A stretch of 64,000 bases of DNA from Desulfobacterales bacterium (GTDB taxonomy: Bacteria; Desulfobacterota; Desulfobacteria; Desulfobacterales; UBA5852): positions 1,888,001 through 1,952,000 of the forward strand of contig CAXXVS010000002.1 of NCBI GenBank assembly GCA_963674755.2, given 5' to 3'. A program made the translations under genes and the position numbers. The notes below the pieces were generated by a model. It was not told the origin of the DNA and made no database searches. It worked only from the letters and a program-made list of their open reading frames with translations. Positions 1-9,272 of the stretch are shown here, in pieces. Every line of letters starts with the position of its first letter. Within the stretch, counting starts at the first letter, position 1.

Positions 1-1092
1 CTCATCGAAAGGGCTGAACAACTGATGGTGGCCCATTCCTGCCGGAAGGTCGCCTTCGGACTGGAGCCCACCGGCAATTACCACAAGCCTTTGGCCAACT
101 GGCTTTTGGAACAGGATCAACTTCTGGTACTGGTCTCCAACAAAGCCATTGCCGACAACCGCGAGAGTCTCGACGGGCGCTGGGATAAGAACGACACCAA
201 AGACAGCGCCAATGTGGCTGACCTGATGGCGCAGGGCAAATGCCAGTTCTTTGAAAAGCCTTCGGCGGAGCTTACCGCGTTGCGCAGCTTGCTTTCACTT
301 CGCAAGCGGCTCAAACGCGATGAACACAGTTTGCGCATGCAGATCCGCAATGGGCTTTTGGTTCGCCACTTCCCCGAGATGGATCGCCTGTGGGGTAGCT
401 GTCTTAAAGAGAATCTAGCCATCGTGCGCAGCTGCCTTGACCCGCGTACCATCAGCGCCATGCCCTTTAACGAGTTCCTCCGGCGGGTGACCGATCGTGA
501 TAGAGGCTTGCGCCAGGTCAAGCGTTTGCAGCGCATCCACGAGGTCGCCGGCACCTCCATCGGCTGCCCCGTGGATGAAGCTGCCCAGTTCGAGGCTCTC
601 CAACTGGTGGATCGCTTAAATGATCTGCGCGACCGTATTAGTCACACCGAAAAACAGATTGCGGATATCTGTCAGGGCTTTTCAGCTTACCGGCGATTGT
701 TGACGATCCCCGGCTTTGGCCCTTACGTGGCTTCTCAGGTGATCGCGCGCATCGGAGACCCGCATCGCTTCGCCGGTCGCAAACAGCTCATCCGCCTAGC
801 GGGCTACGACCTGAACGCCAAGCGTAGCGGCAAGACCAGTGATAAGGCCGTGCCGGTGATCTCCAAGCGCGGCAATGGCGACCTCCGCTACGCCCTGTAT
901 CAAGCGGCCCAGATCGCCTCTTATCACGACAATGGATTCCGCGCTTTGTTTACCCGTTATCTTCAAGGCCGGGAACGCGAGCGTGGCATCAAGACCAAGA
1001 TGCGAGTGAAACTGGCCGTCAAAATGCTGGTCATTGCCTGGTGCATGATGCGCGATGAGACGGATTACGATCCTGCGCTGCTAAAGGTGTAA
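1..1092 (+). CDS. IS110-family (DEDD) transposase/recombinase, 5'-truncated by window edge
   Basis: LEPTGNYH and KNDTKDS RuvC-like DEDD motifs, LTIPGFG HhH motif, SGK catalytic-Ser region, ISKRGNGDLRYALY; frame open from base 1. Confidence 0.93.
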   Translation, partial: LIERAEQLMVAHSCRKVAFGLEPTGNYHKPLANWLLEQDQLLVLVSNKAIADNRESLDGRWDKNDTKDSANVADLMAQGKCQFFEKPSAELTALRSLLSLRKRLKRDEHSLRMQIRNGLLVRHFPEMDRLWGSCLKENLAIVRSCLDPRTISAMPFNEFLRRVTDRDRGLRQVKRLQRIHEVAGTSIGCPVDEAAQFEALQLVDRLNDLRDRISHTEKQIADICQGFSAYRRLLTIPGFGPYVASQVIARIGDPHRFAGRKQLIRLAGYDLNAKRSGKTSDKAVPVISKRGNGDLRYALYQAAQIASYHDNGFRALFTRYLQGRERERGIKTKMRVKLAVKMLVIAWCMMRDETDYDPALLKV

Positions 1093-1409
1093 GCGGTCCT
1101 CTGGACCGCCGTGTTCATCACAATCGAAGTCGTTTGTTCGGCGAGAGAGCCCTTTTATAGACGTTGAGGTCATAACCTCGGTGGGGACAATACCCGGGCC
1201 TCTCTCTGAACTCCAAGCCTGGATAAGGAATGATGGGTGCCGCCGTTTCCGGCAGGACACCGGATAACTGTAACGATCAGGCCATGAGTTCGCCGACCGG
1301 AGAGATACTCGCCGATCCACAAAACCGACAGGAGAAGTGTTTCTTGCCTCTGACAACAACCGTAACTATTTGATTATTCAGTTTTATTTATTTTGTTGAC
1401 AAGGGGAAT
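1093..1409 (+). ncRNA. Putative bridge/seekRNA in the 3' non-coding end of the IS110 element
   Basis: Two consecutive stem-loops with large internal loops (about 1143-1206 and 1208-1291); loop sequences TATAGA (1156-1161) and GGGGACA (1183-1189) match the flank TATAGAaTGTCCCC (1409-1422); TTGACA at 1396-1401 near the element end. Confidence 0.7.
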
Positions 1410-1436
1410 ATAGAATGTCCCCTCCTCCTAGCCCGA

Positions 1437-1794
1437 GCACAGTCTTCATCCAGGTGCTCAAGGACCACCAGGTTAAAATCAGCATGGACGGCCGGGGCCG
1501 CTGTCAGGACAACATCTTCATCGAGCGGCTGTGGTGGACCATCAAGTATCGGTATCTTTACCTGCATTCGTTTGATTCCGGTCGCGACTTGCGACGGGGG
1601 CTGACGGAGTGGGTCCGCTACTATAACCAGCAACGTGGGCATTCTTCTCTTGACGATCTAACCCCGGATGAAGTCTATTACGGTCTACCTCATCCTTTTG
1701 CCGAGGCTGCCTGATGCCTTGTTCTCTATACAATCGCTCTCGGCTTATAGCTTATCTATACCATCAGGCTGTCCAACTCTTGGGGTCCACCGCC
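1437..1794 (+). pseudogene. IS3-family transposase C-terminal remnant with right end
   Basis: MDGRGRCQDNIFIERLWWTIKY...YYNQQRGHSSL integrase-core tail (stop 1714) followed by IRR-like ctgtccaactcttggggtccacc. Confidence 0.85.
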
Positions 1795-1961
1795 TTCAAT
1801 GCGATCCCTGATTACGGATATGAAGTCCTCAACGATCACTTATTGGTTCTCTTCAATACATATATTTGTGATGTGTAAATTTGGATCTACGGGGCGGACA
1901 TTGATAGATGTGCATCCGGTGAGAATAATTGCCGCTGATAAGAATAAAAGTATTCTTTCAT
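1795..1961 (-). pseudogene. Small lipoprotein pseudogene (Sbal_3080-like), frameshifted, nonsense, truncated by IS3 remnant
   Basis: GGAGG RBS, ATG at 1961; with one frameshift reads MKRILLFLSAAIILTGCTSINVRPVDPNLHITNICIEENQ*VIVEDFISVIRDRIE (lipobox LTGC); in-frame TAA at 1840-1842; family from recalled resemblance. Confidence 0.6.
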
Positions 1962-1997
1962 AACAACCTCCATAGCTAAAAATCATGCATAAAACAC

Positions 1998-2038
1998 CAA
2001 AAAAACGAAAACCGGCTCACCTAACGGCAAACCGGTCA
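1998..2038 (-). terminator. Intrinsic terminator (riboswitch expression platform)
   Basis: GACCGGTTTGCC/GGTGAGCCGGTT hairpin followed by T-run on minus strand, between aptamer and RBS. Confidence 0.65.
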
Positions 2039-2049
2039 TACCTGCATCT

Positions 2050-2126
2050 GATAGCGGCAACCCGGCTGCCTTCTGGAGGCCCGTGGCTTTCCGTCCCCAG
2101 CTCACGCCGGGTTTGGCTTTGTATAG
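2050..2126 (-). ncRNA. c-di-GMP-I (GEMM-I) riboswitch
   Basis: Minus strand AAAGCCAAACCCGGC-GTGA-GCTGGGGACGGAAAGCCACGGGCCTCCAGAAGGCAGCCGGGTTGCC: GNRA-capped P2, GACGGAAAG junction, GGGTTGCC end. Confidence 0.9.
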
Positions 2127-2132
2127 CTCGTA

Positions 2133-2161
2133 AAGTTACTAAAACGATTCTAAGCTGTCAA
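2133..2161 (-). promoter_or_regulatory. sigma70-type promoter for riboswitch leader
   Basis: TTGACA-N17-TAACTT immediately upstream of aptamer. Confidence 0.6.
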
Positions 2162-2447
2162 TCGCCTCGCCTGTGGCGCTCGATCCGCCCCATGCTTGAA
2201 ACCTGGCTGTGTCTATAAGGTCCAACCAAGACGCTCCAGATGGCTACGTATAGCGCTAAGTTTCTCAAGGTGTGGAGTGAGATCCTCTAAGATAGGTCGT
2301 TCAATTCTGTACTCATCAGCGGCTGTACCCCAAAGCCTCCTAATCACGGCTCCCTTCCCATTTTTCCATTTTGTGTCACTCGAAATTAATCCTCGTCAGA
2401 GTTAACTTCTATCTAATCATAAATTATCAAGAAAGGAGGTGTACCAA

Positions 2448-2600
2448 GTGAGGAGAAAGCGCAGACCGTTGACCTTGGAAGCTGTTCAACGAATCATGAG
2501 AGCCACAGCAAAGAAAAATGGCGGCAAAATCCCCAAGAGGAGCTGGGCAGCAGAGGCGCAGAGAAGGCTTGCACGACAAGCAAGGAAAACCCCTGTCTAA
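2448..2600 (+). CDS. Small basic protein (50 aa), paralog of next ORF
   Basis: AAAGGAGGT RBS, GTG start; MRRKRRPLTLEAVQRIMRATAKKNGGKIPKRSWAAEAQRRLARQARKTPV. Confidence 0.65.
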   Translation: MRRKRRPLTLEAVQRIMRATAKKNGGKIPKRSWAAEAQRRLARQARKTPV

Positions 2601-3523: not shown

Positions 3524-5413
3524 GATGGCATCGTAAAAAGTCTATCCGCCTGAATTATTTAACAAAACGCCCAATTTCAGCTTGCCATTTTCTTCTCGTC
3601 ATGCTACAGGAAACCAAACAATTACAGATGGTTATCCTGGAGATCGCATGCTTCGCATCAAAGACCACAAACAGCAACATCTCTTCGACCCGTGGGCCTA
3701 TTTGAGCCCCAAACGGCGCCGGATGCTCGAAGAGGGCTGGCCCGGGTTGTTCCGCCAGCATCTGCTCGGAGAACTTCCCGTCGATCTGTTAAAACCCTTC
3801 TTCACTGAAGCCATAGGGCGGCCCACCAAGGAACTGCATACCCTGCTGGGAGTGATGCTTTTCCAGCAAACCATGGATTTAAACGATGTCGAGGCCGTCG
3901 AGCAGCTGGCCTACAACCTCCAGTGGCATTATGCTCTGGACATCACTGAAGAAAGCGACGAGGCCAAATACGTCAGCGAAAAGACCCTGTGGTCGACCCG
4001 CCAGCTGATGGCCGAAAATGGCATTGACGGGGTCATGTTCGAAAAGCTCACCGACAAATTGGCCAAAGTGTTCGGTGTAGATCCTTCCAACCAGCGCATC
4101 GACTCGGTACACATCCGCTCCAACATGCGCCGGCTGGGCCGTATTGCCATTTTCAGCCGCACGATCGCCAAGTTCCTGGTCAATCTCAAACGCCACCACC
4201 GAGAGCTGTTCGATACGATCGCTTCTGATGTGATTGATCGTTACTGGGGTGAGAAGGCCCTATCCGCCTTTTCTCTGGTTAAACCCACGGAATCGGAAAA
4301 GACGTTAAAACGGGTCAGCAATGATCTGTTCGATCTGATCGAGGGCTTCAAGGACCAAACGGCGGTGGCTTTCATGCACAGCTACAAGCTCATGCAGCGG
4401 GTGCTCGCCGATCAATGCCATGTCGAGACCGATGCCGCCGGTGCCCCCCAAGTAACGATAAAGAAGCCGGCCGAGATCCCCTCCGACTCATTGCAAAACC
4501 CTTCGGACCCGGAGGCCACCTACAGCGGCCACAAGGGCCAGGGCTATCAGGTCCAGATCATGGAGAGCTTCAGCCGCAGTGAAGAGGCCAATGAAAAAGA
4601 GCAGGCGCTTAACCTGATTACCCATGTCGAAGTTCAACCCGCCTGCGAGAGCGATGCGGAGGCCGTGGTGCCGGCCATCGCCGATACCAAGATCCGGGGT
4701 GTGGGGCCCGATCAGTTGGTCGCCGACACTTTGTACGGCAGTGACAGTAACCACCAGACGGCCCAAGTGGCCGATGTCGACCTTGTCGCCCCGACCCAGA
4801 AGGGCAATGAGTCCAAGCCGCTCACGGCGTTTAGCTTTAATGACAAGGGCTATGTCGAGACCTGTCCGGCGGGTCACGTTCCCGAGCAGGTGAAGCACAA
4901 GAAGAAAACCGATTGTTACAGCGCGGCCTTCGATTCCACGCTTTGCCAGGGATGTCCGCATGCGGGTCATTGCCCGGTCAAGCCTGGGAAAAAGAAGAAC
5001 TATCTGCGCTACAGCGGAAAGCAATATCGCCTATCGGTGCGTCGCAAGGCCGAGAAAAGCGAGGCTTTCATTGACACCTATCGCTGGCGGGCCGGTGTGG
5101 AGGCCACCATGAGCGAATATGATCGGCGCACCGGGGTCAAAAAGCTACGGGTTCGGGGCATGCCGGCGGTGCGCTTCTGTGCCAAAATGAAGGCCACCGG
5201 GCTCAATCTGCTACGGGCGGCCCGGGTTCGCAGGGCCAGAATGAAGGCCGCAGAGGGTAATCCGGGCCTTGATCACCGTATTACGACTGCTGTTTATCGT
5301 GTCAAAGAACGTTTACAGGCCGCTCTGGTGGAATTTGCCTTCGCTTGGACAAATTCGTCGGGAAGATATCCAGAAAGCTACAAATTGGCCGCCTGATTTT
5401 TTACGCGGCCATC
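3524..5413 (+). mobile_element. IS element, IS1182-like (DUF772 + DDE) with 6-bp TSD
   Basis: IRs GATGGCATCGTAAAAAGTC / GATTTTTTACGCGGCCATC; AAGGTT duplicated at 3518-3523 and 5414-5419. Confidence 0.88.
3648..5396 (+). CDS. DDE transposase (582 aa)
   Basis: GGAG RBS; GRP motif, RIDS, SDPEATY, VADTLYGS, CPAG..CQGCP..C, YRWRAGVEATMSE. Confidence 0.9.
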   Translation: MLRIKDHKQQHLFDPWAYLSPKRRRMLEEGWPGLFRQHLLGELPVDLLKPFFTEAIGRPTKELHTLLGVMLFQQTMDLNDVEAVEQLAYNLQWHYALDITEESDEAKYVSEKTLWSTRQLMAENGIDGVMFEKLTDKLAKVFGVDPSNQRIDSVHIRSNMRRLGRIAIFSRTIAKFLVNLKRHHRELFDTIASDVIDRYWGEKALSAFSLVKPTESEKTLKRVSNDLFDLIEGFKDQTAVAFMHSYKLMQRVLADQCHVETDAAGAPQVTIKKPAEIPSDSLQNPSDPEATYSGHKGQGYQVQIMESFSRSEEANEKEQALNLITHVEVQPACESDAEAVVPAIADTKIRGVGPDQLVADTLYGSDSNHQTAQVADVDLVAPTQKGNESKPLTAFSFNDKGYVETCPAGHVPEQVKHKKKTDCYSAAFDSTLCQGCPHAGHCPVKPGKKKNYLRYSGKQYRLSVRRKAEKSEAFIDTYRWRAGVEATMSEYDRRTGVKKLRVRGMPAVRFCAKMKATGLNLLRAARVRRARMKAAEGNPGLDHRITTAVYRVKERLQAALVEFAFAWTNSSGRYPESYKLAA

Positions 5414-7496: not shown

Positions 7497-7620
7497 TGAG
7501 CACCCTAATGGGGCCACCCTGTGATCACCCTAATGAGGCCACTTTGTGAGCACCCTAATGGAGCCACTTGATGATCACCCTAATGAGGCCAGTTGGTGAT
7601 CACCGTAATGAGGCCACCTG
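7497..7620 (+). repeat. IS21 left-end multiple repeats (5 copies, ~25-bp period)
   Basis: TGA(G/T)CACC(C/G)TAATGRRGCC repeated; inverted copies at about 10112-10160. Confidence 0.9.
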
Positions 7621-7721
7621 CCGCAGGGAAAAACGCGTATAAAACCAAAAAGCATCTCGGACCTTACATCCACAATCTGGTAAGTCTTTCCGGCAAACCA
7701 CCAGCCGCCGGGAGGAATGCC

Positions 7722-9272
7722 ATGGCCAACAGGAGAATCGAGATGCATCAGTACCGACAAGTCATCCACCGTATGCGCCTTGGACAAAGCGACCGCGCCA
7801 TCGCGAAAAGCCAACTGATCGGACGGACCAAATGCGCCGCCGTGCGGGAGGTCGCTGGGCAAAAGGGCTGGCTCAATAGCGGCCCGCTGCCCGACGACGA
7901 ACAACTCGCCAAGATCTTCGAGGTTAAAAGATCCCCCGGCCAAAACCAAGCCCCGTTGACCCAGCCGCATGCGGATCAGATCAAGCAATGGGTCGCAGAG
8001 GGCATTCAAGCCACGACGATCTATGAGGCCTTGGTCGGGCAGTTCGGATTTTCCGGCAGTTATTCCTCTGTCCGGCGCCAGGTAAGAAAGCTGCGCCACG
8101 CGAGCCCCAAAGCCTCTTGCGTTCTGGACTTTGCCCCAGGCGAAGCAGCCCAGGTTGACTTCGGCAAAGGGCCCACGATCAAGGACGTGTTTACCGGCGC
8201 GGTGATCAAGACCTGGATCTTTGTGATGACGCTGTGCTTCAGCCGCCACATGTATGCCGAGATCGTCACCGACCAGAAAGTTGCAACCTGGCTGGCCTGC
8301 CATCGGCGCGCATTCGCGTTTTTCAATGGCGTGGCGGCCAAAATGATCATCGACAATCCCAAGTGCGCCATCACCCGGGCCTGCTACACCGATCCGGACG
8401 TTCAGCGCTCCTACGGCGAGCTGGCCGAAGGATACGGCTTTCTCATTTCGCCGTGTCCCGTCCGGGACCCGCAGAAAAAGGGCCGGGTCGAGTCCGGTGT
8501 CAAATATGTCAAAAACAACTTCGTGCCGCTTCGTACCTTCCGAACCCTGGCCGACGCCAACGAGCAGCTTGTCCGCTGGCTGCTGGAAAGGGCCGGCAAC
8601 CGCATCCACGGCACAACCCACCGAAGGCCGCTGGAGATGTTTGCGGAGACCGAAAAACACTTTTTAAAGCCGCTGCCAGATGTTCCCGTGGAACTCGCCG
8701 TCTGGACCCGGGTCAAGGTGCACGGCAATTGCCATGTGCAGTTTGAAAAGGCCTACTACTCGGCGCCCTTCCGCTTGGTGCACCAGGAGCTGATGCTAAA
8801 AGCCACCGACACGACCGTAAAACTCTACCAGGACGTGAAGCTCGTGGCCACCCACCCGCGGCTCAAGCGCGCCGGCCAGCGCTCGACGGTCGACGGCCAC
8901 ATGCCGCCGGAAGCCCTGGCCTACAAGATGCAGGACCCACAGTGGTGTCTGAAGCAGGCCGAAGCCGTCGGCCCGGATTGTCATCGGCTCGTCCGCCGGC
9001 TGTTTGCCCACAAAGTGCTCGACAATCTGCGCGCGGCCCAGGGCGTAATCGGCTTGAGCAAAAAGTACGGCACGGCCCGCCTGGAAGCCGCCTGCCGCCG
9101 GGCGCTTCACTTCGACAACGTCAAATACCGTACGGTAAAAAGCATCCTGCATCAGGGCCTTGACCAGGCGCCGCTCTACGAGCAGCCCAACGTGATCCCG
9201 CTAGCTGCGGCGTACACCGGCAACGGCCGTTTTCTTCGCCACCAGGTGTACCGGGAAAGGAGGCCGTCATGA
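7722..9272 (+). CDS. istA: IS21 transposase IstA
   Basis: PGEAAQVDFG, IIDNPK, KGRVESGVKYVK. Confidence 0.95.
   Translation: MANRRIEMHQYRQVIHRMRLGQSDRAIAKSQLIGRTKCAAVREVAGQKGWLNSGPLPDDEQLAKIFEVKRSPGQNQAPLTQPHADQIKQWVAEGIQATTIYEALVGQFGFSGSYSSVRRQVRKLRHASPKASCVLDFAPGEAAQVDFGKGPTIKDVFTGAVIKTWIFVMTLCFSRHMYAEIVTDQKVATWLACHRRAFAFFNGVAAKMIIDNPKCAITRACYTDPDVQRSYGELAEGYGFLISPCPVRDPQKKGRVESGVKYVKNNFVPLRTFRTLADANEQLVRWLLERAGNRIHGTTHRRPLEMFAETEKHFLKPLPDVPVELAVWTRVKVHGNCHVQFEKAYYSAPFRLVHQELMLKATDTTVKLYQDVKLVATHPRLKRAGQRSTVDGHMPPEALAYKMQDPQWCLKQAEAVGPDCHRLVRRLFAHKVLDNLRAAQGVIGLSKKYGTARLEAACRRALHFDNVKYRTVKSILHQGLDQAPLYEQPNVIPLAAAYTGNGRFLRHQVYRERRPS

Follow-up and report, generated by a model that had tools for sequence, protein, structure and literature searches.

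We analyzed a 64,000-nucleotide stretch of a Desulfobacterales genome (the window; base 1 is contig position 1,888,001, and positions below are window coordinates unless a contig of this genome, G000, is named). The window opens inside an IS110 recombinase gene (Table 1), which starts 192 bases upstream of it (G000:C2:1887809) and encodes 427 aa. The product matched NCBIfam NF033542 with 196 bits (cut-off 140) and could be aligned to the solved IS621 structure (E value 9e-15), which placed D31, E86, D129, D132, and S340 opposite the catalytic residues D11, E60, D102, D105, and S241 of IS621. Like other IS110-family recombinases, it combines a RuvC-like DEDD domain with a Tnp domain carrying the conserved SG serine. 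The catalytic residues were kept in 56/56 full-length relatives, with Ser in 54 and Thr in 2 at the position of S340; these proteins, kept only if longer than 380 aa, span 420-449 aa, and the records of close relatives are mostly labeled Desulfobacterales or other Deltaproteobacteria. An inverted repeat over the ribosome-binding site of the recombinase gene (G000:C2 about 1887752-1887808) was present in most left ends compared and probably damps translation of the recombinase. Downstream of the stop codon, positions 1093-1423 form the right end of an IS110-family element that is intact, and a bridge RNA is most likely encoded there.

Table 1. Coordinates of the element, its predicted RNA, and the related scars
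Feature	Position	Strand	Basis
IS110 recombinase gene, 3' 363 codons and stop	1..1092	+	Pfam DEDD_Tnp_IS110 and Transposase_20; NCBIfam
Codons E86, D129, D132, S340	64, 193, 202, 826	+	Alignment to IS621
Predicted bridge RNA, ~178-nt three-way junction	1138..1315	+	Consensus fold of 58 sequences; ends from structure
Closing helix	1138-1143 with 1310-1315	+	58-sequence consensus fold
Target-binding arm (hairpin 1)	1144..1203	+	Alignment, compensatory change, consensus fold
Left target guide ATAGAC and core GT, ATAGACGT	1157..1164	+	Identical to left flank G000:C2:1887667-1887674; covariation
Right target guide GGGAC, pairing with core GT and CCC; A1189 at handshake position	1184..1189	+	Flank matches; handshake inferred
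Donor-binding arm: hairpin 2 and basal helix 1204-1206/1300-1302	1204..1302	+	Pair 1205:1301 covaries
Left donor guide ATA-[AG]-GAATG	1223..1232	+	Matches ATAGAAT and first core base when a two-base loop-out is allowed
Right donor guide, TAAC core, extended ATA-[AC]-TGTAAC; G1275 at handshake position	1264..1275	+	Complementary to core and left-end start
-35 box TTGACA of promoter predicted to form on circularization	1396..1401	+	17 bases to TATATA at left-end start
6-bp subterminal inverted repeat AATATA	1407..1412	+	Partner TATATT, left-end bases 3-8
Left donor half-site ATAGAAT, last element bases	1410..1416	+	Three genome copies, relatives' ends
Core dinucleotide GT, both junctions	1417..1418	+	Filled and empty sites in genome
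Target right half CCCC (host DNA)	1419..1422	+	Follows all three copies; empty sites
38-bp scars	G000:C3 near 1151870-1151913 and near 1231265-1231308	-	GT cores on both sides of 36-base left-end remnant
Metagenome scars (L093, L098, L103, L105, L106, L108, L110, L112, L115, L116, L119, L120, L128, L130, L137)			By eye

The genome carries three copies of the element, namely the window copy, C1:78441-80192 (C1a), and C3:2302772-2298328 (C3a). In all three, the left junction reads AC / GT / TATATATTG and the right junction reads TATAGAAT / GT / CCCC, and the flanks of C1a were also found on either side of a single GT at two empty sites (C1:623625 and C2:634822). From the three copies and two empty sites, the core is GT and the last element base is 1416; because the ends are the same in every copy, 1409-1416 is donor DNA and host DNA begins only at 1419. 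The second GT core lies 327 bases upstream of the window, and the element measures 1,742 bp plus one GT core, with a left end of 134 bases and a right end of 324 bases (medians in relatives, 134 and 313.5, respectively). Our junction parser demanded GT-TAT at the left ends, and that share of their conservation is imposed. As is typical of the IS110 family, insertion is site-specific at a short core and occurs without long target duplication or terminal repeats; when the terminal 40-mers were compared, the longest inverted match was 6 bp. An insert of ~2.7 kb, bounded by TG...CA and containing internal repeats, splits C3a at C3 about 2299302-2302002; the RNA and the ends of this copy are intact, and it could therefore still supply guides.

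A preliminary description made from the window alone had proposed that a bispecific bridge RNA is encoded downstream of the IS110 recombinase, and the comparison with relatives agrees with this prediction, since the fold is conserved and both loops covary with DNA. The motifs on which that proposal was built are all in place, including the outer strands GAGAGAGCCC (1143-1152) and GGGCCTCTCTC (1196-1206) of hairpin 1 and its inner stem GAGGT-CATA-ACCTC (1166-1179). Folding of 1093-1423 was better than chance (z -2.66; 1 of 100 shuffles as good), as was that of 1135-1316 (z -3.19; 1 of 200). In an alignment of 57 sequences, both two-sided internal loops were kept, 20 of the 27 core pairs showed changes on both sides, and 92.7% of cells were paired against 24-52% with the partners slid, a score favored by the tested structure having been taken from the same alignment. 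The region thus holds two stem-loops with internal loops conserved by compensatory change, as expected of a bridge RNA. Extension of the alignment by 30 bases on the 3' side (58 sequences) added the helices 1138-1143/1310-1315 and 1204-1206/1300-1302, in which the pair 1205:1301 was AT in 30 sequences, TA in 12, GC in 11, and TG in 3 (56/58 in total). With these two helices the predicted RNA becomes a three-way junction of about 178 nt; a single-sequence fold closing 1137-1143 with 1290-1296 was dropped, as the alignment prefers 1310-1315.

Searches against Rfam matched the RNA to no family, either across window 900-2600 (E values up to 10) or in seven related loci (E values up to 0.1), and a promoter scan of 950-1460 found none upstream of 1138 for a linear RNA (two sites lay elsewhere). 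Of 23 listed runs, four were covered, all as contigs; the three metatranscriptomes among them contained 7-10% of the words, from relatives only, and one contig of run X15 belongs to a relative and covers window 703-1293 with 73 differences. The assembled contigs of the four runs, a form of data that drops rare molecules, contained no circle junction. Six related loci (L008, L009, L014, L016, L017, and L018) share a structured insert of ~150-250 bases between the stop codon and the bridge RNA, which lengthens their right ends to 450-600 bases and had no Rfam match in L008, L016, and L018. A partial repeat of the right strand of the target loop lies directly after the stop codon in L008-L014.

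The two loops divide the work as the preliminary description suggested, loop 1 for the target and loop 2 for the element ends. The left donor guide agreed with the element end in 60/60 loci: at position -3, loop and end were A/A in 30 and G/G in 30, with three changes on the tree in each trait, and at position -6 they were T/T in 55 and C/C in 5, with one change on the tree. Because of this single change at -6, the two-base loop-out required by the left donor guide is suggested rather than proven. The match of GGAAT (1227-1231) with the element end (1405-1409) exists in the sequence, but the pairing drawn from it is off register. The right loop of hairpin 2 had been expected to match the left end, and it is indeed complementary to the core and the first left-end bases; no covariation is seen for this pairing, as the left end is almost constant. 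At both right guides, the next base agrees with the handshake rule as given in the available text of PMC11208158. G1275 faces the target C at -1, and in the RNA sequences of L006 and L007, which have T here, the left target guide ends in A. The suggestion that TTGACA serves as the -35 box of a circle-junction promoter is likewise consistent with the ends: once they are joined, TATATA would lie 17 bases on, and the spacer was 17 in 56 and 18 in 4 of the 60 parsed right ends (the parser allowed 16-21). A TTGACA-17-TATATA promoter across the joined ends, another feature of the IS110 family, is therefore predicted.

These guide assignments are compatible with another route, in which the element is RNA-guided but its main species is a short processed target-loop (seek) RNA, and the element spreads through copy-out or a direct transfer of the top strand instead of full two-strand recombination. 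According to the portions available to us, target-loop-only RNA accounts for 90.4% of the bound RNA of CazIS110-1 and supports the first transfer step (10.1101/2025.10.25.684509), and short seekRNAs dominate in the systems of PMC11187229. However, the donor loop and the closing helix that joins both arms in one molecule are conserved and covarying here, and the available text of the CazIS110-1 report (10.1101/2025.10.25.684509) states that circle formation and complete insertion need the full RNA. We consider this route unlikely, though by no means negligible.

The target of the window copy is ATAGAC / GT / CCC, split across both sides of the element. Within the genome, the guide ATAGAC of the window copy is identical to its flank ATAGAC, and the guide TCAACAAC of C3a is identical to its flank TCAACAAC; the C3a loop sequence TCAACAACGT likewise recurs in the C3a flank. 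The preliminary description had named guide/target covariation among relatives and empty sites as the check to be made. From 126 candidate stretches, 92 were confirmed and the best 80 kept, which together with the three genome copies gave 83 loci; 43 of them yielded a parsed guide and seven flank bases (39 after removal of duplicate pairs), the others being lost to contig ends or parser failure. The guide agreed with the left flank at a mean of 5.56 of 7 positions in the 39 unique pairs against 4.23 (sd 0.18) after shuffling, and none of 20,000 shuffles did as well. For the variable positions -7 to -3 (42 loci), the z value reached 7.3 in register, whereas shifts of 1-3 bases gave -0.9 to 1.6. 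Agreement from -1 to -7 was 39, 33, 30, 29, 32, 37, and 17 of 39, which puts the reading length of the left guide at about six bases. On a protein tree limited to this clade (56 proteins, 36 with both guide and flank), independent pairs in which guide and flank moved together numbered 4.3 of 6 at -5, 6.7 of 9 at -4, and 4.1 of 6 at -3, and those in which they moved apart 0.5, 1.0, and 0.04, respectively; position -7 shows nothing. For the right guide, +1, +2, and +3 each matched in 50/51 loci and +4 in only 14/51, and covariation was seen at the single locus L006, where two bases changed together in right guide and right flank, to CTT. Loop 1 thus covaries with the target as in a bridge RNA, with the left guide directed to the bottom strand, the right guide to the top strand, and the core included in both.

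The complementarity between GGGGACA (1183-1189) and TGTCCCC (1416-1422) pointed out earlier stands in part: GGGAC pairs with the core and CCC, and the seventh base pair, A1189/T1416, sits at the position of the IS621 handshake guide, which explains why the match extended to seven bases. A1189 faces the donor T at -1 (T in 59/60 ends), and we infer that it pairs with the element base T1416 after strand exchange.

Agreement between guide and flank is far from complete. A perfect 7/7 match occurred in only 5 of the 39 pairs, and C1a, L012, and L013 match their own guides at 3/7, 5/7, and 4/7, respectively; either action in trans or loose pairing must therefore be assumed. The flank of C1a fits the guide of C3a at 6/7, closer than its own, which suggests that the RNAs act in trans. 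Such poorly matched copies, together with the repeated and partly palindromic nature of the targets and the failure of any single guide position to reach p 0.05 on the tree, could also be accommodated if the protein or a host-repeat hairpin shape picked the site, the RNA fold were regulatory, and the likeness of loop and flank reflected shared history. We regard this explanation as very improbable, because the likeness is confined to a single register, each guide position has changed 7 to 13 times on the tree and the flank has mostly followed, and sister copies whose proteins are 87-96% identical have diverged in the loop and the flank alike. The register first proposed, with TATAGAATGTCCCC as the programmed target, both guides pairing on the same side of the element end, and a crossover unlike that of IS621, has the 6-nt and 7-nt matches of the window copy in its favor but is refuted by the genome copies, the empty sites, and the relatives' loci and has virtually no chance of being correct, since 1409-1416 is conserved element DNA in all three copies, the empty sites lack the 6-mer, and the 6-mer has 6 forms where the guide has 31, with full 6/6 agreement in one of 56 loci, the window copy itself. 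The 6-mer TATAGA does occur at both 1156-1161 and 1409-1414, but its pairing there is off register and due to chance; a 6-mer such as this is expected about 1,170 times in this genome, so the match alone carried no weight. The split of the target across the element is as described for IS621, and the unusual crossover register that had been suspected is not needed.

The locus is very probably an IS110-family insertion sequence with a predicted bridge RNA downstream of its recombinase gene, for which sequence comparison establishes the ends, the core, the conserved fold, and the covariation of loop 1 with the host flank and of loop 2 with the right end. Its targeting is loose, at about 6 + 2 + 3 bases, with RNAs of sister copies probably acting in trans, and the preferred sites are repeated ends, many of which adjoin Y1-transposase genes. 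The genome has 14 occurrences of the 13-mer that the C3a guide reads, where 0.2 would be expected; six of them lie no more than 500 bases from a Y1-transposase-like gene or a remnant of one, zones that make up 0.4% of the genome. By eye, 6 of the 8 Y1_Tnp matches outside the short 149-179-aa kind have a C / GT / CCC site on the other strand at most 130 bases upstream. The element seems to aim at the ends of Y1_Tnp elements, whose transposases we take to be REP-associated transposases (RAYT). The window's own 11-mer showed a weaker link (1 of 7 sites near a Y1 gene); the window insertion lies 1,426 bases from a Y1 gene, and no such gene is near C1a or C3a. Long Y1_Tnp genes (open frames of 275-354 aa) have empty target-like sites beside them, for example at C1:626306, C2:1645171 and 1644130, C3:765772, and C3:1282374, and one Y1_Tnp gene is flanked on both sides, with the sites in inverted order.

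The system resembles IS621 of E. coli, a member of the IS110 group, as far as the latter is described in the available text of PMC11208160 and PMC11208158. Both have a DEDD and serine recombinase, a target loop followed by a donor loop, a left guide pairing with the bottom strand and a right guide with the top strand, a 2-bp core that takes part in all four pairings, A and G as handshake bases (A81 and G166 in wild-type IS621), a short ATA/TAT repeat around the donor, and a junction promoter (here predicted). The predicted RNA length of ~178 nt is close to 177 nt in IS621 and about 170 nt reported for CazIS110-1 (10.1101/2025.10.25.684509). In contrast to IS621, the RNA lies downstream of the gene instead of upstream, the core is GT instead of CT, the protein has 427 aa instead of 326, the RNA has a helix joining its 5' and 3' ends and no separate 5' stem-loop, and the right target guide pairs with only three bases past the core; a 2-base loop-out is suggested for the left donor guide here and is described for the right donor guide of IS621. 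The element shares a long downstream non-coding region and a promoter (here predicted) restricted to the circle junction with the IS1111-group elements ISEc11, ISKpn4, and ISPa11, as outlined in PMC11187229. However, it does not qualify for the IS1111 group proper, because its subterminal repeat is 6 bp against 7-17 bp in that group (11-13 in PMC11187229), its protein has 427 aa against 330-350 aa (PMC11187229), and its bottom-strand guide precedes the top-strand guide, as in ISEc21 and IS621, whereas the top-strand guide comes first in IS1111-group elements. The IS110 group in the narrow sense also differs, in carrying the RNA upstream of the gene. In its available portions, PMC11187229 treats IS110-type elements with a 3' non-coding region as exceptions within the IS110 group, and our element resembles them by description in protein length (subgroup range, 395-455 aa), short or no subterminal repeat, and downstream non-coding region. 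It is an IS110-type element with a downstream RNA, a kind of exception already described, and belongs to the IS110 family. Relatives without an ISfinder name stand in at least rows 316, 317, and 483 of the tree table of PMC11208160, as far as that table was available.

This RNA-guided kind was described in 2024, so the element itself is no surprise. The locus illustrates that an IS110-type protein can carry its RNA downstream. The clade, which is apparently unnamed, could readily be entered into screens for programmable recombination, since its core is a natural GT, its predicted RNA is compact and in one piece, many natural guide variants exist, and the boundaries are clear. Questions on donor recognition and on how such an element leaves a site arise from the left donor guide's loop-out and from the 36-base scars described below.

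Two further sites in the genome, with different flanks, consist of the target left half, GT, the first 36 left-end bases, GT, and CCC. The same 36-base form was found in another genome, G025 (L087); the full assembled element of G025 has a left end other than that of the scar, so the scar's parent was not found there. A search of 401 genomes for scars matched 12, and a reversed control matched more often; by eye, clear left-end scars were present only in G000 and G025 (L082, L086, and L088 fell outside the clear set). A metagenome scan gave 53 matches, 17 of them with 36 bases, and 15 of these 17 were by eye left ends with target-like flanks, representing about five sequence types with some redundant contigs. 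The metagenome pattern demanded the CC conserved at left-end bases 31-32, which favors a length of 36; without this demand, the three clear cases likewise had 36 bases. The scars thus recur with one length in several lineages. Among 63 full elements, left-end bases 37-38 read GT in 27 and AT in 17, and by eye we found no guide fitting the break point of the scars.

The likeliest origin of the scars on this analysis would be excision in which the right boundary alone was matched. Partial IS110 excision, as described in the available text of 10.64898/2026.08.14.744561 and, for ISPpu9 modules, of PMC12288879, would leave such a scar if one canonical boundary were combined with a recurrent internal endpoint; partial circles with recurrent internal endpoints and one canonical donor boundary are reported in the former (10.64898/2026.08.14.744561). 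Unlike the scars, however, the products in those portions are circles, mostly from expanded elements. In the literature on IS110 elements available to us, including portions of 10.64898/2026.08.14.744561 and PMC12288879, we met no fixed-length scar, and the scars are the only part of the system that might be new in kind. We tentatively propose, while rating it somewhat below an even chance, that the clade has a second stereotyped break point 36 bases inside the left end, set by a conserved non-guide feature or a fixed distance. Excision from there to the right junction would remove the gene and the RNA and leave the 38-bp scar, and since such a break point would be independent of the bridge RNA guides, it could constitute a built-in route of self-removal or target blocking. 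If this is true, the scar would be a by-product of which anyone using these recombinases should be aware.

The element has inserted into a region with other mobile DNA. A 3' fragment of another IS (rve_3; 1434-1798), 98-99% identical to two places in C3, begins 15 bases after the insertion site. An ORF at 1415-1714 was rejected as part of the system, since its start falls within the element end and it represents a piece of another IS (Pfam rve_3). A c-di-GMP-I-GGC riboswitch aptamer (RF03167, 68.6 bits against 59) lies on the minus strand at 2052-2126. Two mutually similar short basic ORFs of about 47-50 aa follow at about 2450-2600 and 2630-2773, the second of which had no match in NCBIfam. 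Transposase genes are also present at 3582-5396 (DUF772 and DDE_Tnp_1_6) and 7593-9272 (rve and Mu-transpos_C_2), and these two additional genes make the region a mobile-element cluster.
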